Shown here: piece after piece, positions 1,608-60,494 of the stretch | Numbering within the stretch: position 1 is the stretch's first letter | Layout of the letters: each line of letters opens with the position of its first letter | Assembly: GCA_041671645.1 (NCBI GenBank) | Contig: JBAZBD010000001.1 | Location: 671,234 to 735,233 of the forward strand | Source: Patescibacteria group bacterium | GTDB lineage: Bacteria; Patescibacteriota; UBA1384; XYA2-FULL-43-10; 1-14-0-10-43-13 | DNA: 64,000 nucleotides | Direction of reading: 5' to 3' | Program-made: the position numbers and the translations under genes | The notes under the pieces: model-generated | Told to the model about the DNA's origin: nothing | What the model saw: the letters and a program-made list of their open reading frames with translations, nothing else | Databases searched by the model: none

Positions 1608-2150
1608 TTAGCCGATCATGTTGAAAATTTTCTGCGCAACTTCATCTGCGCTAAGCAAAGTGGTATCGATAATGTTACCGCAATAGCGGGGCAACATTAG
1701 ATCAACCTCGCGGAGGAGATCAATCTTTTCATCAGTATCTGACAAATAACCTCTGCTATAGAGTCGTTGTAGACGCACCTCCTCGGCGGCCTGTAGGCAG
1801 AAGTAATGGTCAGGCTGGACGATTGGTAATTTTGAGATATCGACAATGTCGACATCAACTCCCATCGCCTTATGAAAACATAACGTCGATATCAAATATC
1901 GATCGCAAACAACTGGACCGCTTTGGAGTAATCTTTCGATTTCTTCCGATGCAACCACATTGCAATTGAGATAAAACAGATATCTGACGAGTGGAGCGAT
2001 CCCCTCGCCATCGTAATATGCCCGCTGCCCAATCATTGGCCCGAACGGAGTTTTGATGAGCGTGGCGCCCATCAAATCGGCAAGAAGTTTCGCTACTGTA
2101 CTCTTGCCAGTACCGTCGATGCCTTCGATGGCAACCATTTTATTCGGCAT
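1608..2150 (-). CDS. thymidylate-kinase-family (d)NMP kinase, paralog 1
   Basis: P-loop IEGIDGTGKST and DRY-type motif VCDRYLIST. ATG at 2150 (MPNKMVAIEG) chosen; ATGs at 2159 and 2138 are alternatives. Ends 11 nt inside the upstream greA-like ORF. Confidence 0.7.
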   Translation of the reverse strand: MPNKMVAIEGIDGTGKSTVAKLLADLMGATLIKTPFGPMIGQRAYYDGEGIAPLVRYLFYLNCNVVASEEIERLLQSGPVVCDRYLISTLCFHKAMGVDVDIVDISKLPIVQPDHYFCLQAAEEVRLQRLYSRGYLSDTDEKIDLLREVDLMLPRYCGNIIDTTLLSADEVAQKIFNMIG

Positions 2151-2634
2151 GATCGTCATCCCCCGGTTGAATCCGCGCAATAACAATTTCTTTCTTGCCA
2201 AGCTTGAATTCATGATACTTTTTTTGGTGAATCAGGGCCTCACCCAAAGGTGACATGTTGGAGATGACCATAATTTTGCCGATTGTTGTCTCCACTTCCA
2301 GCCCCCCTACTTGCTCGGATGAAATATAGACGATTTTCTTGGAACCATCCGAATAGCCCAGAAAAACGATACAGCCGATTTCTACAGTACCATCACCGGC
2401 AATGCCTTCCTGTATTTTTTTGCGAAGTTCGTCGGCGGCTGCAATATAGTTTTGCTTGAAACCATCAGCAGCTGCAGCCTCGCGAGAGAAATCCTCCCGA
2501 TAAGTATCATATCGGGACTCGTTTCTCGTCTGCGAGGTGAGCACTCCCTCTACGGCGCTATCGACATGACCCTGGAAATCCCCTACTTTTCGAAGCAAGG
2601 CTTCCAGGATTTCATTAACAACTTTTATCCACAT
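2140..2634 (-). CDS. greA: GreA/GreB-family transcription elongation factor
   Basis: C-terminal FKBP-like domain ...GKIMVISNMSPLGEALIHQKKYHEFKLGKKEIVIARI aligns with the GreA C-terminus (ISVNSPIARGLIGK...EVEFEVIKV). N-terminal part is coiled-coil-like; 164 aa. Confidence 0.6.
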   Translation of the reverse strand: MWIKVVNEILEALLRKVGDFQGHVDSAVEGVLTSQTRNESRYDTYREDFSREAAAADGFKQNYIAAADELRKKIQEGIAGDGTVEIGCIVFLGYSDGSKKIVYISSEQVGGLEVETTIGKIMVISNMSPLGEALIHQKKYHEFKLGKKEIVIARIQPGDDDHAE

Positions 2635-21503: not shown

Positions 21504-22112
21504 ATGAAAAATATTGAAGTTGAAGTACGCGGCATGCTGCCCAAAGAAAAAGTAGAGCGGCTTAAAACTTTATTCGCCAAAGATGGGAGGCTCAAAGAAT
21601 CCAAAAAACGTTTGCTAATAGATTATTCTTCATTTATTCCGGGCCAAGAGCTCGGAGACAGGGACAGGGATATCCGCCTCCGAACTACCAATGGCCAGCC
21701 CGAAATAATTGTCAAACTTGGCAATTGGGGAGTGGACGAGCGTAGAGAAGAAATCTCTATCAAGACAGAGGAGGGCAGCTTCGAGGAGCTAGTCAAAGCT
21801 TTTGCTGCCATGAACATGAGAAAAGGGATGATGGCTATCAGAGAGAGTGAAGTCTACGATTATAAAGGCATTGAGTTCGCTATCGTGACTGTACCAAACC
21901 ATAGCTACTATTTCGAGGCCGAGAAGATGTCAACCGAGGAAAATTCGAAGCAGGCTTACCAAGAAATTCTGGAAGTTTGCAAAGATTTGGGCCTAGAGCC
22001 GTTTGACCAGAAGGGATTTCTGGACTATATCGATCTTCTCAATAAGGAAGCCAACCAGGTTTTTGATTTTGAAAAGTACACGCCAGGATACTTCGATAAG
22101 TTCTTGATCTAA
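21504..22112 (+). CDS. CYTH-domain protein, paralog 2
   Basis: N-terminal IEVEVRG (ExExR/K-like CYTH start); size and pattern resemble the 988-1506 gene. Confidence 0.5.
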   Translation: MKNIEVEVRGMLPKEKVERLKTLFAKDGRLKESKKRLLIDYSSFIPGQELGDRDRDIRLRTTNGQPEIIVKLGNWGVDERREEISIKTEEGSFEELVKAFAAMNMRKGMMAIRESEVYDYKGIEFAIVTVPNHSYYFEAEKMSTEENSKQAYQEILEVCKDLGLEPFDQKGFLDYIDLLNKEANQVFDFEKYTPGYFDKFLI

Positions 22113-23527: not shown

Positions 23528-24856
23528 TTATTTTTTGACTTCGATTTCGAGGACGTAGACCCCAAGGGCCTCACGTTCTTCTGAGTAAATCTCTCGAAGT
23601 AGCCAGAGGACCTGATCCCAATTTTTGTCTGGGACAATCTTGGTGTGATCCTCCACATTCAGCATCTCTTCAAAGTCACCGTAGACACGAACGTCTTTCA
23701 CATGGATCACGCTCTGCTCTGTGCTGGAAGCAAGGAGAATGTCCTCGCCCGGTCGGATAGTTTTGATATTATCATACCCAACACGCACTTCGATGGTTTT
23801 CTGGCCAGACGTAATTTGTCTTAAGAGATGGTTCTTTACTCTTATGGTTCTCACTGTATTCCCTCCAACTTTGAAACTCCACTGCTGTGTCACCTTTCGT
23901 GGATGATATGCAGCAGGCATTGCGGCATCCAAGCTCCAACCAAGCTTTTGTAAGACAATCGTCTCTTCTACACCCGGCACGATATGGATATAAAGCTTGT
24001 GTCCATATGCCGAAAGAACGAATGGTAGGTCTCGGAGCAGAGCGATCATTGCGCAGATATTGTTCGCGCACAGAGGCATGACCTTGATCGGTTCTCCCTT
24101 TTTGGGTGTTGCTCCCGCAACGCCCAAAACATTGTTCTCTCGATCAACAGCGACATACACCAATTTGTATTTTGTGTTAATGTCGCCAGTACCACGTCTG
24201 TAGTACCCTTCAAAAAGCGAGCCGACCCAAGAATCATCAATACCGTTAAAACACGACTTTAGATTTTCAAGGATCAACTTGCGTACCTGGTCTTCGTGTC
24301 TCAGCTCCATTGGAATTACCGAGATATTTAACGCTTCCTCGATATCACAGCTTGATGTGTCCGCAATAAGCTTGTAGAGCATCGTCTCAACAATCCCAAT
24401 CTTGTAGTGACTGTCAGACTCACCAGCGATCAGATAACCTTTCCTGAGGAAAAAACCCAGAGCTAAAGTATTCTGTTTTGCAACAGTGCAGTAAATCTGC
24501 CTCGCACCGTTGGATTCGGCATACTCTTCTGCTTTCGCGAGAAGCTGGCTACCATAACCTTTGGTCGAGCGGAAATGTGGCGATACGATCAGCGGACTGA
24601 TTTTGTACGTACCCTGTCTCTTGCCAACCACATGAACCATCCCGACAACTTCGTCGTCGACGCAACCGACAAACATTTTCTGTTCTTTGGAGAAATGTCC
24701 GATAGCATCAACCCCACCGGAAATGTGGGTCTGAAAAATCCGCTCGGCATGCGACGTATGGTCGCCACCGTAGTAAGGTTCGAGTGCTTCTTTCATCAAC
24801 TCGATAACAGTTTTAAGGTCAGCACTTATCGCTTCCCTTATGCAAAGTTCGGCCAT
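23528..24856 (-). CDS. GNAT-GNAT-ASCH fusion protein
   Basis: N-terminal GNAT (RSTKGYGSQLLAKAEEYAESNG), a second GNAT-like middle domain, and a C-terminal ASCH/PUA-like domain (LLRQITSGQKTIEVRV...VIHVKDVRV). Start set at MAELCIRE. Confidence 0.6.
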   Translation of the reverse strand: MAELCIREAISADLKTVIELMKEALEPYYGGDHTSHAERIFQTHISGGVDAIGHFSKEQKMFVGCVDDEVVGMVHVVGKRQGTYKISPLIVSPHFRSTKGYGSQLLAKAEEYAESNGARQIYCTVAKQNTLALGFFLRKGYLIAGESDSHYKIGIVETMLYKLIADTSSCDIEEALNISVIPMELRHEDQVRKLILENLKSCFNGIDDSWVGSLFEGYYRRGTGDINTKYKLVYVAVDRENNVLGVAGATPKKGEPIKVMPLCANNICAMIALLRDLPFVLSAYGHKLYIHIVPGVEETIVLQKLGWSLDAAMPAAYHPRKVTQQWSFKVGGNTVRTIRVKNHLLRQITSGQKTIEVRVGYDNIKTIRPGEDILLASSTEQSVIHVKDVRVYGDFEEMLNVEDHTKIVPDKNWDQVLWLLREIYSEEREALGVYVLEIEVKK

Positions 24857-25000
24857 GTACAGCCTCCTTCGTCTGTCGCTAACCATGCTTTGGTTTGAGC
24901 GACTGGAAACTCCCTTGCGGGGTAACATTCTTATAACATAAGAAACTAATTTAGTCAACAAAAAAATCCTCCCTCTTGCCCTGCTACGGATAGTACATTT

Positions 25001-39786: not shown

Positions 39787-41118
39787 ATGAAACTAGATAT
39801 CTTCAAAAATGGATCCCCAATACTTCGCACACCCACAGAAACGGTGACTGATTTTGACATGGAACTCCAGAAAACTATAGACGATATGATCGAGACGATG
39901 AGGGGCGCCAACGGAATCGGCTTGGCCGCACCACAGATCGGTAGCTCGAAGAAATTATTGGTCTGCGAATTTGCAGGAGATGAAGAGAGCAAGATTCCGG
40001 CTGTCCCGCTAACTGTCCTTTGCAACCCCGAAATTGTTCAATCGTCAGACGAACTAAAAAATATGGTCGAGGGCTGCCTTTCCTTCCCTGGTATGGAGTT
40101 GATCGTGAAAAGACCGAAAAAGGTGAAGGTGAAGGGCTTTGATAGATATGGCGAACCGATCGAGATCGAAGCTGACAATTTGTATGCTCGAGTGCTACAG
40201 CACGAGATCGATCATCTAAATTGCACCCTTCTGGTCGACCATCTAGAGGAAGTTGACGTTATTTTTATCGGCACTGGCACGCTCGGCGTCCCTGCGCTCA
40301 ATGCCCTAGCAACAGACCCGCAATATCGCATCAAACTTGTCATCACCGGTGAAAATCTTGCCGTCTCAAGAACTCATGCCGACAACATCAACCCAATCGA
40401 GGAAACTGCCAAGAAATACAAGATCCCAATTCTCAAGACCAAGAATATCAAGGATCCTGAAACAATTGAGAAAATCAAAGCGACTAAGCCAAAAATTGGC
40501 ATTATGGCTGATTTTGGTCAGATCGTCAGCGAGGAGATTCTCAACATTCCAGAGTTTGGCATCATCAATATTCATCCTTCACTACTTCCTAAATACCGTG
40601 GACCCTCTCCAATCCAGCAACCGATTCTGGACGGCGTCAAAACTACTGGCGTAAGTCTGATACTAACGGCGAAGAAAATGGATGCTGGCGACCTTGTTTC
40701 TCAAACTATTGTGAAACTTCAAGGTTCGGAAACTTCTACTATTCTGAAGAACTTCCTGGCCGAAGTCGCTGCAACGCAACTTCTGAATTCCCTGCCCTAC
40801 TATATCGCTGGCGACTTGAAGCCTGAGCCACAGGGAGAGAAGCGGATCAGCTATACCCGCCTTTTCACGAAGGAGGATGGCCTTGTCACCGAAACAACTC
40901 CAGCAGTAGAGGTTGAGAGGAAAATTCGCGCTTTTGACGCTTGGCCCAAGGTCTACACTATGGTCAAGGGCAAGAGAGTCCAGCTTCTCTCTTCACATTT
41001 CGATAAAGAAAATAATTTCTTCATCGACCGAGTCAAACCAGAGGGCAAAAGTGAGATGAGTTATGAAGACTTTGTCCGAGGTTATCATACCGAAATCAAA
41101 TTCTCTGAATCGCGTTGA
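39787..41118 (+). CDS. def-fmt: peptide deformylase - methionyl-tRNA formyltransferase fusion protein
   Basis: Residues 1-155 carry the Def motifs GIGLAAPQIG, EGCLSFPG and QHEIDHLNC. Residues 157-443 are Fmt (VIFIGTGTLGVPALNAL; NIHPSLLPKYRGPSPIQ). Single uninterrupted ORF. Confidence 0.8.
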   Translation: MKLDIFKNGSPILRTPTETVTDFDMELQKTIDDMIETMRGANGIGLAAPQIGSSKKLLVCEFAGDEESKIPAVPLTVLCNPEIVQSSDELKNMVEGCLSFPGMELIVKRPKKVKVKGFDRYGEPIEIEADNLYARVLQHEIDHLNCTLLVDHLEEVDVIFIGTGTLGVPALNALATDPQYRIKLVITGENLAVSRTHADNINPIEETAKKYKIPILKTKNIKDPETIEKIKATKPKIGIMADFGQIVSEEILNIPEFGIINIHPSLLPKYRGPSPIQQPILDGVKTTGVSLILTAKKMDAGDLVSQTIVKLQGSETSTILKNFLAEVAATQLLNSLPYYIAGDLKPEPQGEKRISYTRLFTKEDGLVTETTPAVEVERKIRAFDAWPKVYTMVKGKRVQLLSSHFDKENNFFIDRVKPEGKSEMSYEDFVRGYHTEIKFSESR

Positions 41119-49747: not shown

Positions 49748-50935
49748 TTATTTGGTTATTTCCTTGACCAATTCGTGAATGCCGATTTGACCCTTGTCGC
49801 CCTCGCCGTATTTGCGAACAGCCACTTTGTCGGCCTCGATTTCTTTGTCACCAATCACTAACATATATGGAATCTTTTGCATCTCTGCTTCGCGGATTTT
49901 CTTGCCAACTGATTCGGTCCTAACGTCAATTTGGACTCTGACGTCCTGGCCTGCCAATTCTTTCCTAATCTTCTCAGCGTATTCGTTGTGGCGATCAGCA
50001 ATTGGTAGAACAATCGCTTGAACGGGAGAAAGCCAAGTAGGTAGCGCTCCACCAGTTTGCTCTAGCAGTATGGCAATAAATCTCTCAACTGATCCCAAAA
50101 TTGCTCGGTGGATCATAACTGGATGCTTTTTCTCACCCTTTTCGTCGACATAATTGGCGTCGAGTCTCTCAGCCATGGCGAAGTCTAGCTGGATCGTGCC
50201 CAATTGCCAGCTTCGACCAAGCGCATCTTTGACGTGAAAATCAATCTTCGGGCCGTAAAATGCACCATCGCCTTTGTTGATTTTGAATTCAACTTTTTTG
50301 GATTTCAGGGCCTTTTCCAGCCCGCCCTCTGCCTTGGTCCAAACTTCATCACTTCCGATCGATTTCTCTGGTCTGGTAGAGAGTTCAACTCTGATATCCG
50401 TAAAGCCATAACGATGATAAGTTTCGAATACGAAATCAATCAATTTGGCAATTTCCTTCTCGATATGGTTGTCATCACAATAGATGTGCGCATCATCTTG
50501 TGTAAAATTTCGAAGACGCAATAGTCCGTTGACCTCGCCTGCCTGCTCGTAGCGAAAAACTGTGCCAAATTCGGCCAATTTGATCGGCAAATCTTTGTAC
50601 GAGTGGATTTCTTCGTTAAAGATCATGAGTGATCCTGGACAGCTCATCGGCTTCAAGCACCATTTTGGCTTGTCGAGCTCCTTTTCATTGCCGACAAAGA
50701 ATAATTTTTCGTGATAGTTGTCGAAATGTCCGCTAGTTTTGAGTGTCTCAGTGCTGATAATCGAGGCAGATTTGATCTCTTTGTACCCGTCAGCAGTAAG
50801 ATGTTTTTGCAAATCTGCGAGGATCACATTGAACAGTGTCAATCCTTTGGGCCACCAATAAACAACTCCTGGCACCTTCTCGTCAAAACTAAACAGTCCC
50901 AATTCTCGCCCCAATGCTTTGTGGTCGCTTTCCAT
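49748..50935 (-). CDS. thrS: threonyl-tRNA synthetase, catalytic plus anticodon-binding core only (no N-terminal TGS/editing domains)
   Basis: Starts at the DHRxLGxELxLF-equivalent (DHKALGRELGLFSF); class II motifs, HRAILGSVERFIAILLE, C-terminal anticodon-binding domain; only 395 aa. Confidence 0.8.
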   Translation of the reverse strand: MESDHKALGRELGLFSFDEKVPGVVYWWPKGLTLFNVILADLQKHLTADGYKEIKSASIISTETLKTSGHFDNYHEKLFFVGNEKELDKPKWCLKPMSCPGSLMIFNEEIHSYKDLPIKLAEFGTVFRYEQAGEVNGLLRLRNFTQDDAHIYCDDNHIEKEIAKLIDFVFETYHRYGFTDIRVELSTRPEKSIGSDEVWTKAEGGLEKALKSKKVEFKINKGDGAFYGPKIDFHVKDALGRSWQLGTIQLDFAMAERLDANYVDEKGEKKHPVMIHRAILGSVERFIAILLEQTGGALPTWLSPVQAIVLPIADRHNEYAEKIRKELAGQDVRVQIDVRTESVGKKIREAEMQKIPYMLVIGDKEIEADKVAVRKYGEGDKGQIGIHELVKEITK

Positions 50936-50970: not shown

Positions 50971-51264
50971 TTAAATAATATTTTTATATAAGTCATCCCA
51001 GTCGGGATTTTCTTTTTCTATTAATTCAATCTTCCAATCTCTCTTCCAACGTTTCAATTTCTTTTCTCTCTCGATCGCAGATAACGGATTGTCGTACTCT
51101 TCAAAATGTACCAACTTATCTATAAAATATCTGCTCGTGAAACTCTCTTTGTCATACTTGCCCTTGTGGAAATAAATCCTTCTTTTGAGATTATTCGTAA
51201 CCCCGACGTACAAAACTCCGTCTTTCTTGCTGGCTAATATGTAAGTGTAATACTTCTTTCCCAT
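50971..51264 (-). CDS. GIY-YIG nuclease-domain protein, paralog 3
   Basis: YYTYILASKKDGVLYVGVTNNLKRRIYFHKGK. Confidence 0.65.
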   Translation of the reverse strand: MGKKYYTYILASKKDGVLYVGVTNNLKRRIYFHKGKYDKESFTSRYFIDKLVHFEEYDNPLSAIEREKKLKRWKRDWKIELIEKENPDWDDLYKNII

Positions 51265-51477: not shown

Positions 51478-51930
51478 TTATTGCATGAACATTTCGGTCG
51501 CACCTTCGGGTAAGTGGACATCGCGAATTTTGCCTCTGATCATCGCCTCCCAACAAGGCTGGCAACACCACCAATGTCCCCAGAGATAGACGTCTGCCCC
51601 CTCGGTATCGATGCCCGCCTCGATCGCTTTGTTCACAACCAAAAGTTCGGAGTGGCCCTCCTGTTCGCAAATTTCCTTGCAGAGATGATAATCAGTCCCA
51701 GTCTTGCTTTTTGCAACTACCCTGGGGCAAACTTCGACTAATTTGCCAGCGTTGGTCGAAGTCATTAAAACTTTGCCGTTTTTGACCAACACTGCACCGG
51801 TCGGCTGTTTGCGACAGCCGGTCTTCTCGGTCGCTTTCTTGGCCGCTAGGATGAACGGATTATCGACCGCCACATATTTGATCTCTCTGCCTTCAGGCAG
51901 ATAGGGGCAATTGATTTTTTTCTTCGTCAT
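51478..51930 (-). CDS. cytidine/deoxycytidylate deaminase-family protein (dCMP deaminase-like)
   Basis: HSELLVVNKAI (HxE) and CQPC zinc ligands in WWCCQPCWEAMI. Confidence 0.65.
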   Translation of the reverse strand: MTKKKINCPYLPEGREIKYVAVDNPFILAAKKATEKTGCRKQPTGAVLVKNGKVLMTSTNAGKLVEVCPRVVAKSKTGTDYHLCKEICEQEGHSELLVVNKAIEAGIDTEGADVYLWGHWWCCQPCWEAMIRGKIRDVHLPEGATEMFMQ

Positions 51931-52621
51931 TTTTTTCTGTTTTTATCGGTGCATCTGGAACTTCTACGAGATAATTCTTCTTGATTTTGTCGACTGCACC
52001 ATCTCGAAGAAGGTTAATTTCATCGTGCGGATCAAATTTGTAGTCTAGCTGATAGCCTTCGACACCCTGATATTTTGGCTTGGAAAGGCCATGTTCCTCC
52101 GCTTCTTTGACCGTGATATCATGCTCCATGGTCTGGAAGACGAGCTGTGCGATTCTCTCGCCGGGATAAATTCTGATTTTCTGAGTCTTGGTCATGTTGA
52201 AAACTGGAATCATGAGAGAGCCAGAGAAATGAGGGTCGATAATGCCTGATTCGATCGAGATGCCACGACGAGTAGTCGAACTCCGAGGGTAGAGAGTGGC
52301 CATGATCCGACCGGAGTTGATATTGATCTTCTCGAGAGTCGAAATGAGGATGAATTCACCCGGAAGTAATTCGAAGGTTTGGCCGGGCTTCAGGTGCAGG
52401 ATATCTAGAACTTCGCTTTTCACCTCGTTGTTCAAATGATCAACCATCAATTCTGTCCGGCCTTCTTCGCTGAAAGACCAAGTCTTGGGGATAAAGAAGT
52501 TGGAGCCGACGCGAACATCAATTGCGGCTGGTTGAAGTTGAAATTGGTCAACTCCTGGCTCAAAAGTTAGCTCGCCCTGGCTGATAGATTTGATAATTTC
52601 ACTCTTTGTCAGAATTCCCAT
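51893..52621 (-). CDS. dCTP-deaminase-fold (dUTPase superfamily) protein lacking the catalytic Glu; candidate dCTP/dUTP pyrophosphatase
   Basis: Aligns with E. coli Dcd (AIDVRVG; RSSTTRRGISIESGIIDPHFSGSLMIPVFN against [32 protein letters not shown]). The Glu of VLEF is replaced by Pro. About 60 aa of C-terminal extension. Confidence 0.6.
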   Translation of the reverse strand: MGILTKSEIIKSISQGELTFEPGVDQFQLQPAAIDVRVGSNFFIPKTWSFSEEGRTELMVDHLNNEVKSEVLDILHLKPGQTFELLPGEFILISTLEKININSGRIMATLYPRSSTTRRGISIESGIIDPHFSGSLMIPVFNMTKTQKIRIYPGERIAQLVFQTMEHDITVKEAEEHGLSKPKYQGVEGYQLDYKFDPHDEINLLRDGAVDKIKKNYLVEVPDAPIKTEKNDEEKNQLPLSA

Positions 52622-53132
52622 AGTTCACTCCGTATTTTAATAATACCGTTTGATTTGCTTTTTTGACGCTCTTCAAATGCAGATTAACATCTCTTTTGAC
52701 GTCGGACAATATTCTCATGCCAAAACCGAATATCTTGGGCTCTACTGTAATCCAGAGCTCATCGATAAGTTGCTTGTCGAAGAAAAGACTATTAATCATG
52801 CTTCCGCCGCCAATGAATACTTTCTTGAATCCCCGCTTTTTCAAATTTTTTAGTACCTCAGCTGGAGGCGTGTTGACCACAAACTCGAGCAAACCCGGTT
52901 TCTCTAATTTTTTGTCCTCCGGGTTCATAGTCATGACATAATTGAGACGACCTGGAAGTGGCCTGTCGCCAAAGGTGGCGAAGGTGTTGCGGCCAAAGAC
53001 AATGGCGCCGCCCTTTTTCGTTTCTGCGACGAAGAACTGTTTGTCTTCCTTCGAGGTCCAATTGGCGGTGTGATCCTTGTCATGAGCGATCACTCCGTCC
53101 AGAGACTCAGCCATAATAATTATTGTTTTCAT
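52599..53132 (-). CDS. dihydrofolate-reductase-superfamily protein (RibD_C-like)
   Basis: MKTIIIMAESLDGVIAHDKDHTANW ... VFIGGGSMINSLF; overlaps the thyA-like gene by 4 nt. Confidence 0.65.
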   Translation of the reverse strand: MKTIIIMAESLDGVIAHDKDHTANWTSKEDKQFFVAETKKGGAIVFGRNTFATFGDRPLPGRLNYVMTMNPEDKKLEKPGLLEFVVNTPPAEVLKNLKKRGFKKVFIGGGSMINSLFFDKQLIDELWITVEPKIFGFGMRILSDVKRDVNLHLKSVKKANQTVLLKYGVNYGNSDKE

Positions 53133-53959
53133 AATGCGATTTTCATTTTTTTAACTGCTGCTTTGGGATTGTATTGACTGCTTAAGATTTCAAATATTTC
53201 CATAATCAGTGATTCATCGCCTGCCATCGCTCGATCGAGCCAATCTGCCTTGGGCTCAAATACAATGGGGGGATGAGAATTTACCCGATTGAGAAGTTCG
53301 TGTGCTTGAGCATAATGATTTTCATAGATGTGAGCGTTGGAAACGGTATGGGTATAGACACCTGGCTTCACTCCCAATTTGGCGGCTAATAGATACTGAA
53401 GTAATGCAAAGCCAGCGGTGTCGTGAGGACAGCCCAACATCATGTCGTTTGAACGAACGACCGAATGAAGGTGGAGTTTGTTGCCGATAATATTGACGGT
53501 GAAAGTGTATGGACAGGGCACATTTTTCTTCTTGGTGCCGCTCGATAGCCCATCATCAGCTGGGTCCCAGGTCACCACCACTCCATGGCGAGATGAAGGA
53601 TCCTTTTGTAGTAATGTAACCAGATCGGCAATCTGATCACGGCCAAAGGCGTGACGCCAACGATAACCGTAGGCCGCCGCCACTGTCCCGTCTTCCTCCA
53701 AGAAGTCGTCCCAAATCTTGGTGTATTTGTCCAAGAACTCGTCCGGCCTCTGTCCCCCTGAGAGATACCAGACCATTTCAGCCACGAATATTTTGATCGG
53801 GATTTTGCGCAAAGTCAGAATTGGAAAGCCAAAATCAACTTGAAAAGTGAGTCCTGGCACCGCCTTGGTCTTGAGACCCGTGCGGACATTCAACTCTTCA
53901 ATGCCTTCGTTCATCACTCTGGCGATTGCGTTTTGGTAGACCTTGTCAAACTGTGTCAT
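53129..53959 (-). CDS. thymidylate-synthase-family enzyme with Asp at the pyrimidine-specificity position (predicted dCMP 5-methylase/hydroxymethylase rather than canonical ThyA)
   Basis: Aligns end to end with E. coli ThyA (RWRHAFG, DQIADLVTLLQKDPSSRH, catalytic Cys in VPCPYTF, RSNDMMLG). The segment LGLPFNIASYALL of TS reads LGCPHDTAGFALL here, so Asn177 is replaced by Asp. Confidence 0.75.
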   Translation of the reverse strand: MTQFDKVYQNAIARVMNEGIEELNVRTGLKTKAVPGLTFQVDFGFPILTLRKIPIKIFVAEMVWYLSGGQRPDEFLDKYTKIWDDFLEEDGTVAAAYGYRWRHAFGRDQIADLVTLLQKDPSSRHGVVVTWDPADDGLSSGTKKKNVPCPYTFTVNIIGNKLHLHSVVRSNDMMLGCPHDTAGFALLQYLLAAKLGVKPGVYTHTVSNAHIYENHYAQAHELLNRVNSHPPIVFEPKADWLDRAMAGDESLIMEIFEILSSQYNPKAAVKKMKIAL

Positions 53960-54523
53960 TTATTTCTCGCCCAATTCTAATATTATTTTGTCGATCTTCT
54001 GATAAAGATCGTCGAAGTTACCCGAGTTGTCAATTTTCCGATCGGCCATAGCGGTTGTCAAGTCGATCTGGGGAGCGTTATTGGCACCAGACTTTTCCTG
54101 CTCCTCTTTCGCAACCAAATCATCAATCGTTTTGATCGCGTCATCCTCGCCACCTTTGTTCCTCGCCTGCATGCGCTGAAAACGTATCTCTATTGGCGCA
54201 TATATTTCCCAAAGTTCAAAATCAGGGCTTTTTTTCAAAGCTTCAACTTCGCCAGTTTGGCGAACAGCCGGGACGACCCAATCGCCGCCAGTTTCGTTTA
54301 TTTTTTTGAGAGCTTGTTCCGCCAAGTATCCCGTCCCGAACTCGGCACGTAATTCGTTGCCTTTTTGTAGTAAATTTTCACGAATTAATTCTTTGCCTTC
54401 CGCTCGCAAATGGTCACGAATTATATCTGAAAGAGAAACACGTTTATATCCCTTTTTCTCAACTAAATAATCACCCACTGTGTCTTTGCCGCCAGCAAAC
54501 CAACCTGTAATTCCGATAATCAT
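53960..54523 (-). CDS. P-loop nucleotide kinase with GxxxxGKDT Walker A (T4 gp1 dNMP-kinase-like; tentative)
   Basis: MIIGITGWFAGGKDTVGDYL compared with T4 gp1 MKLIFLSGVKRSGKDTTADFI; 187 aa; abuts the thyA-like start. Confidence 0.5.
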   Translation of the reverse strand: MIIGITGWFAGGKDTVGDYLVEKKGYKRVSLSDIIRDHLRAEGKELIRENLLQKGNELRAEFGTGYLAEQALKKINETGGDWVVPAVRQTGEVEALKKSPDFELWEIYAPIEIRFQRMQARNKGGEDDAIKTIDDLVAKEEQEKSGANNAPQIDLTTAMADRKIDNSGNFDDLYQKIDKIILELGEK

Positions 54524-54565
54524 ATTTTCCTTATTACTTTATAGACTTTACGAACTTTATGAACT

Positions 54566-55810
54566 TTATGACTCAACCCCAGGGACCGGGAACTTCGTCG
54601 CCATTTCTTTGACCTCAGCTTTGACTTCGGCCAATTTCTCGGCCTTGTCCATATTCTCTGCCACTATATTAAACATTTCGGCGATTCTCTGCATCTCGGC
54701 CACGCCCATGCCACGAGTAGTCAACGCGGCTGTCCCCACTCGAATGCCCGAAGCAATTTTGGGCGGATTGGGATCTGCCGGCACTCCGTTTTTGTTGACT
54801 GTAATACCAGCTTCGTGAAGAGCGTACTCAAAATCCTTGCCGGTCAGATTTTTGTTTCGTAAATCAACTAATACCAGATGATTGTCCGTCCCGCCAGTGA
54901 CCAGCTCAAAATCAAAGGATTGGAGGGTCTTGGCAAAGGCTTGCATATTCTCCAGTACCTTGCCGATATATTCTTTGAAATCTGGGCGCAGTGCCTCGCC
55001 AAATGCGACCGCTTTGGCCGCGATGACGTGCTCGAGCGGCCCGCCCTGGAGCATGGGGAAGACGGCTTTGTCGATCTTCTTGGCCAGCTCCTCGTCATTG
55101 GTCATAATAATCCCACTTCGAGGCCCGCGCAAGGTTTTGTGAGTGGTGGAAGTTACAATGTCGGCAATTCCGATTGGTGACTCATGATATCCAGTCGCGA
55201 CCAAGCCAGCGATATGGGCGATGTCAGCGATCAAAACAGCGCCGACTTCATCAGCTATCTCCCTGAATTTCTTGAAATCAATTGCGCGAGGATAAGCTGA
55301 GTAGCCGCACATGATCACTTTTGGCTTGACTTCGAGGGCGATTTCTCTGATCTTGTCATAATTCAATCTGCCAGTCTCGGGATCAATGCCGTAAAAGTGG
55401 GAGGTGAACCATTTGCCGGAAAATGAAACCTTGGCGCCGTGGGTCAAATGTCCCCCCGCGTCCATGGCTTGGCCGAGAATAACGTCGCCTGGTGATGCCA
55501 CAGCGGCGTAAGCGGCCATATTGGCAGAGGAGCCGGAGTGCGGCTGGACATTGGCAAAGTTGCAACCAAAAAGCTTCTTGAGCCTATCGATCGCTAGAGA
55601 TTCGGCCTGATCGACGCATTCGCAACCGCCATAATATCGAGAAGCAGGATAACCTTCGGCGTATTTGTTGGTCAATATCGATCCCGTTGCCTCCAATACG
55701 GCTTCTGAAGCGTAGTTTTCCGAAGCGATCATCTCAAGTCCTTCGACTTGGCGCTTTTTTTCGCACTCGATAATTTCAAATATTTCTTTGTCTGATTCTT
55801 TTAAATTCAT
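54566..55810 (-). CDS. glyA: serine hydroxymethyltransferase
   Basis: LIASENY-like IASENYAS, PLP-Lys region TSTTHKTLRGPRSG, full-length conservation. Confidence 0.95.
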   Translation of the reverse strand: MNLKESDKEIFEIIECEKKRQVEGLEMIASENYASEAVLEATGSILTNKYAEGYPASRYYGGCECVDQAESLAIDRLKKLFGCNFANVQPHSGSSANMAAYAAVASPGDVILGQAMDAGGHLTHGAKVSFSGKWFTSHFYGIDPETGRLNYDKIREIALEVKPKVIMCGYSAYPRAIDFKKFREIADEVGAVLIADIAHIAGLVATGYHESPIGIADIVTSTTHKTLRGPRSGIIMTNDEELAKKIDKAVFPMLQGGPLEHVIAAKAVAFGEALRPDFKEYIGKVLENMQAFAKTLQSFDFELVTGGTDNHLVLVDLRNKNLTGKDFEYALHEAGITVNKNGVPADPNPPKIASGIRVGTAALTTRGMGVAEMQRIAEMFNIVAENMDKAEKLAEVKAEVKEMATKFPVPGVES

Positions 55811-55905
55811 AAAAATCCTTGTGATTGTCATCCTGAACTTGATTCAGGATCTAGATTATTTGGTAGGTTCCGGATCAAGTCCGGAATGACATTCTTCGCC
55901 TCAAC

Positions 55906-56556
55906 TCATAGGTCCTCGCTTTTGATCTCACTTTTCAGCTCATCTAGAAAAACTTTTGTAAAATTGTATCTTTTCTCAGCAATTTCCTTCGAATATGGGA
56001 AGTTCAGATTTTCGTATTTTTGAAGAGGCCCTCGGTCTAGAGCGTCTACAAAGCTGTGATTTAGCCAGACTTCCTTTGACTCCGGCACAGGTTCGTCATT
56101 CACAATTGGATAGCCTCTCTCGCCATAATAATAGGCGATTCTACTGATCCCGATCGCTCCCATCGATTCCAGACGGTCTGCGTCCTGTAAAATCTTTGTC
56201 TCGACATGGTTAGTCTCTTCTCCGTCATGACCCCAAGCATAATTATCATGCAGACGAATCGCTTCCAATACGTCATCCATTTTGGCAGGAGGGAAACCGA
56301 GCTCAGGCAACCATTTTTTGGCGATTTCCATACTGTACTTAAAATGATGCTTGTCATCATCTTCATGATTTTTGTATCCGATATCGTGAAGCAAAACTGC
56401 TGCAACTAAAATCTCTTCATCGCAAGCAATATTTTTTGAGATTTTAATTGCAATATCTTTGACCCTTTCCAAATGATAAAAATCGTGGCAAGCGGTGTAG
56501 CCTTTCAAATATTCTTTGATCTTCTTTTCTAATTTGTCTTGCCAATCATATTTCAA
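55906..56556 (-). CDS. HD-domain phosphohydrolase
   Basis: H...HD...D: CHDFYHLERV, LLHDIG, DADRLE. Confidence 0.7.
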   Translation of the reverse strand: MKYDWQDKLEKKIKEYLKGYTACHDFYHLERVKDIAIKISKNIACDEEILVAAVLLHDIGYKNHEDDDKHHFKYSMEIAKKWLPELGFPPAKMDDVLEAIRLHDNYAWGHDGEETNHVETKILQDADRLESMGAIGISRIAYYYGERGYPIVNDEPVPESKEVWLNHSFVDALDRGPLQKYENLNFPYSKEIAEKRYNFTKVFLDELKSEIKSEDL

Positions 56557-57239
56557 ATCAATTCCTTCTTTACAATCTCAAAAACCTTCTCTGATATCTC
56601 TTCAATCGGCAAAATCTTGTCGTCAACTGCGCAATCAATTTTACGCCATTCTGGGTACCTATCTGCTAGCCAAAGATATGTTTTTTCGACTTCAAGCAAA
56701 TACTCGCTGTTGCTTTCGTGGATATCTCTTTTTGCGTCAGTATAACTTCTTTTGGCCTTCTGATCGACTAGAATCTGGCCAATCTTGAAAGGGACATAAA
56801 GATAAACAACCAGATCAGGCTTTGGGATATTGAAAACATGGTATTCCAATTCGTAAAGCCAATCTAGAAATTTCTGGCGTTCTTTTTCATCTGGAAACAG
56901 CGCGCCAGAGAAAGCCATGTTTGATTGCACGTAACGATTTGAGACAATGATCTTGCCCGCGCTCAAATCATTCCGCATCTTCTCAGACACCTCGTAACGA
57001 TCGCCTGCGTACATTAGAGAGATTAGATATGGCGAAATTTGTTTGGTTGTTCCAAATTCGCCATTGAGATATCGTCCCACCATCTTGCCAAAGAATGTCT
57101 CTGTGTACTGGGGGAAATCATAATAGGCGATCGAGTGGCCCAGGCTTTTCAACTTTTCAACTAAAATATCAGACTGCGTCTTCTTGCCCGCTCCGTCAGA
57201 TCCGTCAATGACGATAAAAGTTCCTTTTTGTTTTGCCAT
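56553..57239 (-). CDS. tmk: thymidylate kinase
   Basis: FIVIDGSDGAGKKTQ P-loop, SNRYVQSNMAF (DRY-type); 228 aa; 4-nt overlap with the HD gene. Confidence 0.8.
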   Translation of the reverse strand: MAKQKGTFIVIDGSDGAGKKTQSDILVEKLKSLGHSIAYYDFPQYTETFFGKMVGRYLNGEFGTTKQISPYLISLMYAGDRYEVSEKMRNDLSAGKIIVSNRYVQSNMAFSGALFPDEKERQKFLDWLYELEYHVFNIPKPDLVVYLYVPFKIGQILVDQKAKRSYTDAKRDIHESNSEYLLEVEKTYLWLADRYPEWRKIDCAVDDKILPIEEISEKVFEIVKKELI

Positions 57240-57242
57240 GGT

Positions 57243-57539
57243 TTAGTCGTTATTTTTTAATAATGCACTCAGCTTATTTTGCAGATCGTCCAAACGAAAT
57301 GATTCGTGAATTTCGGCTTCAGAATATCTACCTTTTTGTTCAGCAGCCGCGTCGATAATGTCGATTCTCTTCTGCGCCTCTTCGATGATCATGCCTATCA
57401 GATTTGGTCTGATTCGAGCGAGTTTGATAATCGGAGCAACGTTCCAAGACATCTCAAAGTCATTAAGCAATTCCGAAATATCAATTCGTTGATAATCCTC
57501 TTTCATCGGCCTCTGTTCTGTCGGTTCGCCCTCTGCCAT
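57243..57539 (-). CDS. hypothetical protein
   Basis: 98 aa, acidic, no motif; operonic with tmk and the mazG-like gene. Confidence 0.4.
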   Translation of the reverse strand: MAEGEPTEQRPMKEDYQRIDISELLNDFEMSWNVAPIIKLARIRPNLIGMIIEEAQKRIDIIDAAAEQKGRYSEAEIHESFRLDDLQNKLSALLKNND

Positions 57540-57540
57540 T

Positions 57541-57912
57541 TTAGCTCTCCAATTCTTTGCGCTCTTTGTCGGTTTGTCGATTAATATTCATCTCGTGGTC
57601 GTATTTGTCAGGATAGCGAGTCTTCAATTTACGAATATTCTTGTCCCAAATATCTTCGAAAGAAACACCCAATTCATCGGCCAAAATAGCCAGGTACCAC
57701 ATTACATCTCCCGCTTCCTCAACCAAATTGATCTTGTCGAGCGGTTTTTCGTAAATTTTTGTCTTCTTAACCGCCGACATGAGCTCGCCCGCTTCGGTCA
57801 CAATGCCATAAACAGCATGCTCGATCCGAGGTGACAAATCCCGAAAGGCAGGAAAAGCGTATGGTTTTGACTCTGTCCTCTTGGCATTCTCAATATATTC
57901 TTTTGGTGTCAT
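57541..57912 (-). CDS. MazG-like all-alpha NTP pyrophosphohydrolase
   Basis: VTEAGELMSAV and EEAGDVMWYLAILADELG, the EExx[ED] pattern of the MazG/HisE family; 123 aa. Confidence 0.65.
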   Translation of the reverse strand: MTPKEYIENAKRTESKPYAFPAFRDLSPRIEHAVYGIVTEAGELMSAVKKTKIYEKPLDKINLVEEAGDVMWYLAILADELGVSFEDIWDKNIRKLKTRYPDKYDHEMNINRQTDKERKELES

Positions 57913-59903: not shown

Positions 59904-60494
59904 TCATTTTTTCTTAACTGTAATCTTTTGCGCTTTCTTCGGCTCAGCTTTTGGCACTGTGATCGAGAGAATGCCGTCTTTCATTTCGGCCTCTGCTTTA
60001 TCGGCAACTACTTCGGCTGGCAAAGTGAAACTCCGCTCAAACCTGCCCGTATGGCTCTCTTTATAATAATAGTGCTCTTCGTTATCGGAATATTCGCCCG
60101 CGATCGTCATCACATTGTCCATGATCTCGACATTGATATCTTCCTCTTTCATCCCTGGCAATTCTACTCTGACCACGATAGCATCTTTGGAATCTAGAAT
60201 ATCAATTTTTGGTGTTAGGCTTTGCGGATTCGGCGCGGCGAAACCATCGCGTGACTCGTCAATCAATATCTTTTCTATTTCATGTTCAAATTCAAAAATA
60301 TCTTCGAAGGCGGTATCAAAAAATTGGCAGAGCGAAACTGCCAGCGGCAGAGAAGGCATTGAGCGCCCCGACTCGAGCGAAATTATTGATTGGCGAGAAA
60401 TGCCGAGATGTTCGGCTAGCGCTTCCTGAGAGAGATCGCGCTTCTTGCGCCAATCCTTAATCCTGATTTCAATTGGAAAATCTTTGTCATCCAT
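59904..60494 (-). CDS. XRE-family HTH fused to an Hsp20/alpha-crystallin domain
   Basis: N-terminal LSQEALAEHLGISRQSIISLESGRSMPSL (Cro/C1 HTH); C-terminal AIVVRVELPGMKEEDINVEI...GRFERSFTLP...DGILSITVPK (sHSP ACD). Confidence 0.8.
   Translation of the reverse strand: MDDKDFPIEIRIKDWRKKRDLSQEALAEHLGISRQSIISLESGRSMPSLPLAVSLCQFFDTAFEDIFEFEHEIEKILIDESRDGFAAPNPQSLTPKIDILDSKDAIVVRVELPGMKEEDINVEIMDNVMTIAGEYSDNEEHYYYKESHTGRFERSFTLPAEVVADKAEAEMKDGILSITVPKAEPKKAQKITVKKK

Follow-up and report, generated by a model that had tools for sequence, protein, structure and literature searches.

Gene content and organization of the locus

The stretch of DNA analysed here, referred to as the window, comprises 64,000 nucleotides of a genome of the Patescibacteria (Candidate Phyla Radiation, CPR; assembly GCA_041671645.1, contig JBAZBD010000001.1, positions 671,234 to 735,233). 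Between positions 51478 and 57912 it carries ten co-directional open reading frames (ORFs) on the minus strand, among them a homologue of the thymidylate synthase (TS) ThyA, and the predicted role of this cluster in the supply of thymidine nucleotides is the subject of this report. A first-pass annotation had named the ten genes and their families from the letters of the sequence. All ten ORFs are present, and each family call was confirmed by Pfam and NCBIfam except for that of a 98-aa ORF.

Read in the direction of transcription, the cluster begins with a MazG-like all-alpha NTP pyrophosphatase (57541-57912; Pfam MazG 5e-10, PRA-PH 8e-6; phrog_229 2e-39), which is followed by the family-less 98-aa ORF (57243-57539; no Pfam, NCBIfam or PHROG match), the thymidylate kinase Tmk, which converts dTMP to dTDP (56553-57239; TIGR00041 with 86.3 bits against a cut-off of 83.25), and a YedJ-like HD-domain phosphohydrolase (55906-56556; Pfam HD 6e-14; NF007515 1e-23, under its cut-off). 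The second part consists of the serine hydroxymethyltransferase (SHMT) GlyA (54566-55831; Pfam SHMT 4e-157; NF000586 2e-184), a P-loop (GKDT) protein with the fold of a nucleoside monophosphate (NMP) kinase that resembles UPF0200/SSO1041 (53960-54523; phrog_139 dNMP kinase 2e-14), the ThyA homologue of 276 aa (53129-53959; Pfam Thymidylat_synt 5e-54), a RibD_C-like dihydrofolate reductase (DHFR; 52599-53132; Pfam RibD_C 9e-20, DHFR_1 2e-14; phrog_316 DHFR), a protein of the DCD/dUTPase fold (51893-52621; Pfam DCD 2e-28, dUTPase 1e-16), and a zinc deaminase of the CDA fold, similar to dCMP deaminases (51478-51930; Pfam MafB19-deam 7e-9, dCMP_cyt_deam_1 2e-7).

The tight order of the genes described in the first-pass annotation was found as such, but not the single gap of 75 bp. 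There are two true gaps, 74 nt between the HD gene and glyA (95 nt if GlyA begins at the ATG of the public gene call) and 42 nt between glyA and the kinase gene, and the overlaps amount to 4 nt between the stop of the ThyA homologue and DHFR, 23 nt between DHFR and the DCD-fold gene, and, as the largest, 38 nt between the DCD-fold gene and the deaminase. The HD-GlyA spacer (55811-55908, minus strand) folds into a hairpin followed by UUUUU just ahead of the GlyA start (minimum free energy -25.7 kcal/mol; z = -2.26 versus shuffles). This hairpin may act as an attenuator or processing site, splitting MazG, the 98-aa ORF, Tmk and HD from GlyA, kinase, ThyA homologue, DHFR, DCD-fold protein and deaminase. 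An Rfam scan of the cluster, which covered tetrahydrofolate (THF) and ZTP riboswitches and included the spacer hairpin, gave no match, and a promoter and terminator scan of the cluster returned one weak promoter-like site 5' of MazG and no convincing internal terminator.

The ThyA homologue belongs to a cytosine-type clade

In thymidylate synthases, positions 147, 165 and 177 form the network that recognizes O4 and N3 of uracil (positions are given in E. coli ThyA numbering throughout). Compared to solved thymidylate synthases, the ThyA homologue keeps the catalytic Cys, and Asp replaces Asn177 ('GCPHD' vs 'GVPFN'). The substitutions comprise His147 to Pro, Gln165 to Val, Asn177 to Asp, Trp83 to Phe and Arg127 to His, and the residues kept are Arg21, Glu58, Trp80, Tyr94, Arg126, Cys146, Arg166, Ser167, Asp169, His207 and Tyr209. 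Asp177 is invariant in all 120 of the closest database homologues, which are without exception named "thymidylate synthase" and come from metagenome-assembled genomes (MAGs) of Patescibacteria. An exhaustive search of 1.8 billion cluster representatives placed Asp177 in ~130 of the nearest 150 sequences, 104 of them also with Pro147; 19 were canonical His/Asn forms, and these enter only from ~E=1e-42. The Asp177 clade is thus large, and Pro147, Phe83 and Asp177 co-vary in it, with position 165 being variable.

The best phage matches were Xanthomonas phage Xp12 and Pseudomonas phage PaMx74, each with its relatives. The enzymes of both phages share with the CPR protein Asp177, Pro147, Phe83, an 'EDGLG..KNVPCP' insertion and an 'AAYGYRWR..FGRDQ' motif; the alignment shows neither the insertion nor the motif in E. 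coli ThyA. Blastp values follow the same order, with 1e-53 for PaMx74, 6e-34 for E. coli ThyA and 6e-10 for T4 gp42, to which the identity is 21-24%. The function of the decisive residue is known from mutagenesis: according to the summary given in PMC8670742, an Asn177/229 to Asp exchange turns the TS of E. coli and L. casei into a dCMP methylase, and Asp179 to Asn shifts the dCMP hydroxymethylase (CH) of T4 towards dUMP. In the MetaGPA approach, positions 177 and 147 were the two residues most strongly associated with cytosine-modified DNA (PMC8670742). 5-Methyl-dCMP is the product of the enzyme of Xp12 and of five out of seven Asp-type enzymes from metagenomes, and in phages Xp12 and PaMx74 all C is replaced by 5-methylcytosine (5mC; bioRxiv 10.1101/2024.12.05.627091). 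The dCMP specificity conferred by Asp177 and the formation of 5-methyl-dCMP by Xp12-clade enzymes are the parts of our reading that are taken from the literature.

Together these comparisons support the assignment of the ThyA homologue to the cytosine-type enzymes, with dCMP-modifying phage enzymes as its nearest characterised relatives, which is in agreement with the Asp-variant call of the first-pass annotation. Papers on CPR bacteria treat the gene as plain thyA (PMC12455944); CPR folA was shown to be functional, and the synteny of thyA and folA was noted there, the Asp not being remarked on (PMC11974145).

Distribution and partner linkage in Patescibacteria

According to a genome scan, at least 291 species-level genomes carry the ThyA homologue. 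All are Patescibacteria by content, from ABY1 and Paceibacteria lineages, and the protein is conserved at 57-68% identity across CPR classes. Many carrier MAG records (L006-L011, L019, L022 and others in our locus numbering) bear the title 'uncultured Gammaproteobacteria' or 'Candidatus Saccharibacteria', although in genes and size they are Patescibacteria-like (e.g. a 931-kb chromosome, OZ246400.1); these titles are probably placeholders or mistaken taxonomy.

The arrangement is not a chance one: these genes are found again, in variable order, around the ThyA homologue of 80 further Patescibacteria genomes. Linkage was counted for partners within ±10 kb of the ThyA homologue gene at 81 CPR loci. 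A DHFR of either type was linked in 78/81 loci, the deaminase in 71/81, the DCD-fold protein in 41/81, Tmk in 26/81, the extra kinase in 23/81 and GlyA in 19/81. MazG (5/81) and HD (2/81) were rarely linked. MazG, HD and the 98-aa ORF are lineage-specific passengers, not conserved partners. At the position of the 98-aa ORF, the nearest relative (locus L002) carries a 96-aa ORF without detectable similarity, and the 98-aa ORF is probably not a functional member of the set. Moranbacteria loci have the order GlyA, kinase, ThyA(Asp), DHFR, DCD, deaminase, Tmk, MazG, which is nearly the window set in another arrangement. In a Falkowbacteria cluster (L012, 14845-16122) Tmk is fused to a thymidine kinase (TK; Pfam Thymidylate_kin 3e-50 and TK 1e-54).

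Matches similar to TK were obtained in 6 loci. In two ThyA(Asp) clusters the kinase gene is separated from Tmk by a Pfam-less ORF of 283-330 aa (L012 13664-14527 and L018 13067-14059; ABY1-lineage), which has homologues in 4 loci and may be an extra component of the pathway.

Methylation of dCMP is predicted rather than hydroxymethylation

In TS the folate site is closed by ~27 C-terminal residues which T4 CH does not have, and CH as well as the nucleoside-antibiotic enzyme MilA release THF and so need no DHFR (PMC5175136). The CPR protein has a C-terminus of ThyA length, which can be aligned with E. coli '...YDPHPGIKAPVAI'. The structures on which its AF2 model superposes best are full-length thymidylate synthases, including those of E. 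coli and E. faecalis (Foldseek TM ~0.8), and T4 gp42 is not among the top 50 structural (Foldseek) matches of the model. The DHFR found in almost every locus is of two non-orthologous types, either RibD_C-like or canonical FolA-like. Since the linkage was kept through non-orthologous replacement, dihydrofolate appears to be released, as expected for methylation and not for hydroxymethylation.

With respect to the sugar, Ala at the position of Ser167 and Lys at that of Arg126' determine the preference for ribose in MilA and BcmA (PMC5175136). The ThyA homologue carries Ser167 and Arg126, the deoxy signature, and not the Ala/Lys pair; CMP-level chemistry of the MilA/BcmA kind was ruled out by this signature. 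From homology and context we infer that the ThyA homologue is a dCMP C5-methyltransferase, which would take up 5,10-methylene-THF and release dihydrofolate.

Partner enzymes

The DHFR is predicted to recycle the dihydrofolate formed by the methylase, and GlyA to regenerate 5,10-methylene-THF for it. After DHFR, the CDA-fold deaminase is the tightest partner of the ThyA homologue. Its residues H93, E95, C123 and C126 (HxE and CxxC) are invariant in 71/71 homologues, and the enzyme is predicted to convert a 5-methyl-dC nucleotide to a dT nucleotide. The deaminases that adjoin the Xp12 enzyme and the metagenomic Asp-type enzymes with 5-methyl-dCMP as product are 5mC-selective and yield dT nucleotides (bioRxiv 10.1101/2024.12.05.627091).

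The DCD-fold protein was expected by the first-pass annotation to be dCTPase-like. The catalytic Glu of dCTP deaminases is Glu138 in E. coli and Glu129 in M. tuberculosis and lies in an 'ITLEL' strand. When the window protein is aligned with the enzymes of M. tuberculosis and B. halodurans (2QXX, 4XJC), Pro139 takes the place of this Glu, and 40 of 41 CPR homologues have Pro at this position. Motifs of the trimeric dUTPase type are kept in the family, namely motif II (R113-S114-S115) and, within motif III (GxIDxxY/F), a conserved G126, D129 in 40/41 and Tyr or Phe at position 132. By these residues the protein is a pyrophosphatase and not a second deaminase, predicted to act as a dCTP (or dUTP) diphosphatase, which fits the expectation of a dCTPase. 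Without the deaminase Glu it would not be redundant with the CDA-fold deaminase.

For the extra kinase a counterpart in T4 gp1 had been suggested, which was not borne out. An hhalign comparison with gp1 (PDB 1DEK) aligned only 39 columns around the P-loop at a probability of 59%, and gp1 is absent from the top 50 Foldseek matches. The best of these is the archaeal, AMP-bound SSO1041 (PDB 3LW7/3H0K), which is similar in sequence (8e-11) and in fold (TM 0.71-0.78). The kinase also matches the kinase-like domain of an anti-phage protein that PADLOC names 'dCTPase' (a dCTP deaminase; PDLC02373, 6e-15), which suggests that the kinase family binds deoxycytidine nucleotides. The protein is a candidate for a (5-methyl-)dCMP kinase or a general dNMP kinase. 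Homologues occur also in the DPANN archaea Aenigmatarchaeota and Nanoarchaeota.

The Tmk of the operon has the P-loop and the DR(Y/F)-type motif of thymidylate kinases and keeps the Arg that binds thymine O4 ('GDRYE' aligns with 'ANRWE' of human TMPK). A second ORF of the Tmk family lies elsewhere in the window (1608-2213, minus strand; 201 aa; Pfam Thymidylate_kin 1e-17). In contrast to the Tmk of the operon, it has Asn in place of the thymine-O4 Arg ('NCNVV' vs 'AMRRE' of Ehrlichia Tmk 3LD9) and may have another base specificity, e.g. for (5-methyl-)dCMP. MazG, proposed earlier as a counterpart of T4 gp56, turned out not to be specifically gp56-like: hhalign gave a probability of 7% against gp56 and 0.1% against the MazG-like protein of Xp12, a similarity at the level of motifs only. 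It is possibly an accessory house-cleaning enzyme for dCTP, dUTP or 5-methyl-dCTP. As the first-pass annotation had proposed, the ThyA homologue is accompanied by nucleotide pyrophosphatases and an extra NMP kinase.

Phage loci and fusion proteins

Asp-type phage loci in IMG/VR (n=46) have the fixed order MazG-TS-deaminase-DHFR, with MazG in 39/46, the deaminase in 41/46 and DHFR in 33/46. In a published survey the deaminase adjoined TS in 70% of cytosine-modifying contigs vs 6% of canonical ones (bioRxiv 10.1101/2024.12.05.627091). Fusion proteins of the Asp clade join the same functions, namely deaminase and TS(Asp) in P0148 (433 aa) and PRA-PH/MazG and TS(Asp) in P0179 (424 aa); long canonical ThyA forms are DHFR-TS fusions. 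P0148 is located on a 210-kb contig, and another member of the Asp177 clade, P0150 (432 aa), is a fusion of an HNH endonuclease and TS.

A ThyA(Asp) copy of CPR grade was present in a single IMG/VR contig (L089, IMGVR_UViG_3300025858_000007; 57% identity), and near this copy deaminase, DHFR and MazG were not detected. The contig may belong to a CPR phage, or it may be a piece of CPR DNA that was wrongly classed as viral.

A proposed route from dC to dT nucleotides

We propose that the operon serves as a housekeeping supply of thymidine nucleotides by the sequence dC, 5-methyl-dC, dT, leading to dTTP without a dUMP intermediate and leaving the DNA essentially canonical; we would put the chances of this reading at about even. 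In the first step the Glu-less DCD-fold pyrophosphatase, perhaps joined in this lineage by MazG, would convert dCTP to dCMP. The Asp177 ThyA homologue would then transfer the one-carbon unit of 5,10-methylene-THF onto C5 of dCMP and reduce it, giving 5-methyl-dCMP and dihydrofolate, from which DHFR and GlyA would regenerate methylene-THF. The CDA-fold deaminase would convert the 5-methyl-dC nucleotide to the dT nucleotide, either at the level of the monophosphate, with Tmk acting next, or at the level of the triphosphate after phosphorylation by the extra NMP kinase, yielding dTTP. The pathway takes the observed gene content, active-site residues, conservation, linkage and relatedness to phage enzymes as its basis, and adds presumed substrates for the deaminase, the pyrophosphatase and the kinase as well as a presumed absence of 5mC from the DNA.

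In support of this, a true Tmk is part of the cluster, a relative has the fusion of Tmk and thymidine kinase, and the setting is that of a housekeeping chromosome. The first-pass annotation had argued that ordinary thymidylate synthesis does not need these genes. We would turn the argument round, as the set looks like the lineage's own thymidylate route. A route from dC via 5-methyl-dC to dT nucleotides was proposed for 5mC phages (bioRxiv 10.1101/2024.12.05.627091); we found no description of it for cells in the literature, and nothing relevant on CPR methylomes or on ThyX in CPR.

Several points weigh against the proposed route. Formation of 5-methyl-dCMP was shown for the enzymes of Xp12 and five metagenomic homologues only, with none of the CPR clade among them. 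The CPR deaminase gave no blastp match to the deaminases of Xp12, PaMx74 and Donnerlittchen, and the sole characterised phage deaminase uses 5-methyl-dCTP, not the monophosphate (bioRxiv 10.1101/2024.12.05.627091). Deamination at the triphosphate level would expose 5-methyl-dCTP to the polymerase. If the CPR deaminase acts on 5-methyl-dCTP, this nucleotide would be an obligatory component of the pool and would in part or entirely end up in the DNA. If the Glu-less DCD-fold protein is a dUTPase, the whole set (Dut, dCMP deaminase, ThyA, DHFR, GlyA, Tmk) fits a dUMP route. Finally, neither ThyX nor an Asn-type ThyA was found in the ~1.3 Mb of flanks, a scan which has little power.

Alternative explanations and known systems

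The first alternative assumes the same chemistry for a different end: the extra kinase would phosphorylate a substantial part or all of the 5-methyl-dC pool for incorporation, so that C in the genome would be largely or wholly 5mC, as in Xp12 and PaMx74. The role of the pyrophosphatases would then be to draw down dCTP, with a part of the pool being channelled into dTTP by the deaminase. We regard this explanation as unlikely, and its general form, in which at least 291 Patescibacteria species make 5-methyl-dCTP before replication and have largely or completely 5mC-substituted chromosomes through a machinery shared with Xp12-like phages, as improbable. It draws on the phage module, since MazG, TS(Asp), deaminase and DHFR provide the four functions of the CPR core, and the phages with this module are fully 5mC-substituted. 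In the CPR cluster a pyrophosphatase takes the same slot at the 41 loci with the DCD-fold protein, and a second NMP kinase, whose family has a relative in the kinase-like domain of a defence protein acting on dCTP, stands beside Tmk. A triphosphate-level deaminase like that of the phage would make 5-methyl-dCTP an obligatory intermediate, and 5mC is invisible to short-read sequencing. The lack of any C5 DNA methyltransferase in the 1.3 Mb of flanks adds little: in this motif scan of ~1.3 Mb of CPR flanks and the window, C5 DNA methyltransferases (PCQ/ENV) and ThyX (RHRxxS) were each found 0 times and N-methyltransferases once, and the scan is too underpowered to tell whether a genome is 5mC-substituted or the route purely metabolic. 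On the other side, no cellular organism is known with genome-wide base replacement, linkage of the pyrophosphatase is limited to about half of the loci and that of MazG to five, and Tmk and the Tmk-TK fusion tie the cluster to dTMP metabolism. Weaker evidence of the same kind is that the G+C content of carriers varies widely, to as much as ~59% by the names of the MAGs, and does not show the AT drift that unrepaired deamination of 5mC should cause.

The likeness of the CPR set to the module of Xp12 and PaMx74 (MazG-like dCTPase, dCMP methyltransferase, 5mC-selective deaminase and DHFR) extends to the partner functions and to the logic of making dT from 5-methyl-dC. Unlike the phage module, the CPR version is chromosomal and conserved like a housekeeping gene set across a bacterial radiation. 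The ThyA homologues of the two systems are no more than 37-43% identical; at position 127 the CPR enzyme carries His in place of Arg, and its C-terminus has the full ThyA length, whereas the phage enzymes are 5 residues shorter. Moreover, the CPR deaminase is not detectably homologous to its phage counterparts, the CPR pyrophosphatase is usually of the DCD fold and not MazG, and the CPR cluster adds GlyA, Tmk and the NMP kinase.

According to a second alternative, to which we give little credence, the Asp-type enzyme methylates dUMP, the DCD-fold protein is a dUTPase and the deaminase a dCMP deaminase, and DHFR, GlyA and Tmk complete the classical pathway. A classical role is indeed available for every gene, public annotation and the CPR papers say thyA (PMC12455944), and the Glu-less DCD-like enzyme resembles archaeal DCD-like dUTPases (NF002598 match). 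The ThyA homologue also shares with canonical ThyA and FolA (EC 2.1.1.45 and 1.5.1.3) the TS-like fold, Cys146, the phosphate-binding arginines, the C-terminal tail and the coupling to DHFR and SHMT. However, it differs from canonical ThyA in the network for base recognition (Asp177, Pro147 and Val165) and in Phe83 and His127, and its predicted substrate is dCMP, not dUMP. The residues at 147, 165 and 177 have all changed together, and the exchange at Asn177 is the one that makes the E. coli and L. casei enzymes act on dCMP, the reverse exchange having the reverse effect in T4 CH (both as summarised in PMC8670742). In addition, all assayed natural Asp-type enzymes act on cytosine nucleotides, and adjacency of deaminase and TS is typical of cytosine-modifying contigs, not of canonical ones. 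The classical route would account for the list of genes, but not for the three changes in base recognition or for the clade to which the enzyme belongs.

The first-pass annotation had favoured a third alternative, in which a set like that of T4 with a dCMP hydroxymethylase makes 5-hydroxymethyl-dCMP for DNA. We consider this highly improbable. T4 gp42 has the equivalent of Asp177 as well, and the T4 set likewise combines a cytosine-specific enzyme of the ThyA superfamily with NTP pyrophosphatases, a GKDT dNMP kinase, a deaminase and DHFR. Yet gp42 is a distant relative by identity and structural rank and lacks the folate-closing TS C-terminus, which the CPR enzyme retains (PMC5175136). Hydroxymethylases release THF and have no need of the DHFR that is linked in nearly all CPR loci; in T4, Frd serves Td and not gp42. 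The kinase and MazG stand outside the gp1 and gp56 families, and the predicted chemistry is that of a methyl and not a hydroxymethyl transfer. Linked genes for modification or restriction, which had been suggested as a further mark of such a system, did not turn up: the 64-kb window holds no DNA methyltransferase, restriction enzyme, glycosyltransferase (a glucosyltransferase included) or other gene for decorating 5-hydroxymethylcytosine.

The CMP hydroxymethylases MilA and BcmA of nucleoside-antibiotic biosynthesis are likewise ThyA homologues encoded on bacterial chromosomes, and they too have Asp at the position that specifies the base. They differ from the CPR protein in having Ala176 and Lys133' for ribose in place of its Ser and Arg for the deoxy sugar, and MilA carries a large additional domain at the C-terminus and lacks a partner DHFR.

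The last alternative, a mobile or defence island in the form of a prophage remnant or an anti-phage system that depletes nucleotides by a dCTP-acting enzyme, an HD hydrolase and a kinase, is very improbable: it could appeal to the match of the kinase to PADLOC 'dCTPase' (6e-15), to a GIY-YIG ORF just downstream of the cluster and to the phage genes that are the closest characterised relatives of the ThyA homologue, but PADLOC gave no other match, the ThyA homologue is conserved at 57-68% identity in at least 291 species across CPR classes, a single IMG/VR contig has a CPR-grade copy, and the window is an ordinary CPR chromosome with uniform G+C content across window and cluster and housekeeping neighbours (UvrA, UvrB, PriA, Def-Fmt, Der, the ribosomal proteins S16 and L25, TrmD, Lgt, LepB, BipA, ThrRS and tRNAs). 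The defence-system reading was rejected for the further reason that the PADLOC match is limited to the kinase-like domain.

Implications

If the proposed route via 5-methyl-dC is correct, the CPR "thyA" that enters counts of minimal metabolism is not a textbook thymidylate synthase, and a major bacterial radiation makes its thymidine nucleotides independently of dUMP, by a route so far proposed only for 5mC phages. Metabolic reconstructions of CPR symbionts would change in their needs for dUTPase, Ung and Dcd, in their folate economy, and in the view of CPR folA as a public good. The cellular dCMP methylase and the 5mC-nucleotide deaminase would form a new enzyme pair of a kind already exploited for methylation sequencing, and an evolutionary link would be drawn between cellular and phage systems of nucleotide modification. 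Any 5-methyl-dCTP that leaks into CPR DNA, or fills it, would affect nanopore basecalling, restriction biology and the interactions of host, symbiont and phage. Should CPR DNA be 5mC-substituted, a non-canonical base would be present throughout the genome of cellular organisms for the first time, which would be categorically new.

Further features of the window

The small ORF with a GIY-YIG nuclease domain (50971-51264, minus strand) lies directly downstream of the deaminase gene. It is found at the same position in the nearest relative (L002, 9132-9629; 90% identity) and in 3/81 loci. The adjoining ThrRS ORF (49748-50935, minus strand) encodes 395 aa with the catalytic core and the anticodon-binding domain only, and its counterpart in L002 has 580 aa; the N-terminal editing/TGS region of the window ThrRS appears to be missing. 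An ORF of 443 aa (39787-41118, plus strand) is a fusion of peptide deformylase and methionyl-tRNA formyltransferase (Pep_deformylase 5e-50 and Formyl_trans_N/C). Unusual fusions are also encoded at 59904-60494 (HTH_3 and HSP20, 196 aa, minus strand) and at 23528-24961 (GNAT and ASCH, 477 aa, minus strand), and two ORFs with a CYTH domain are located at 988-1506 and 21504-22112.

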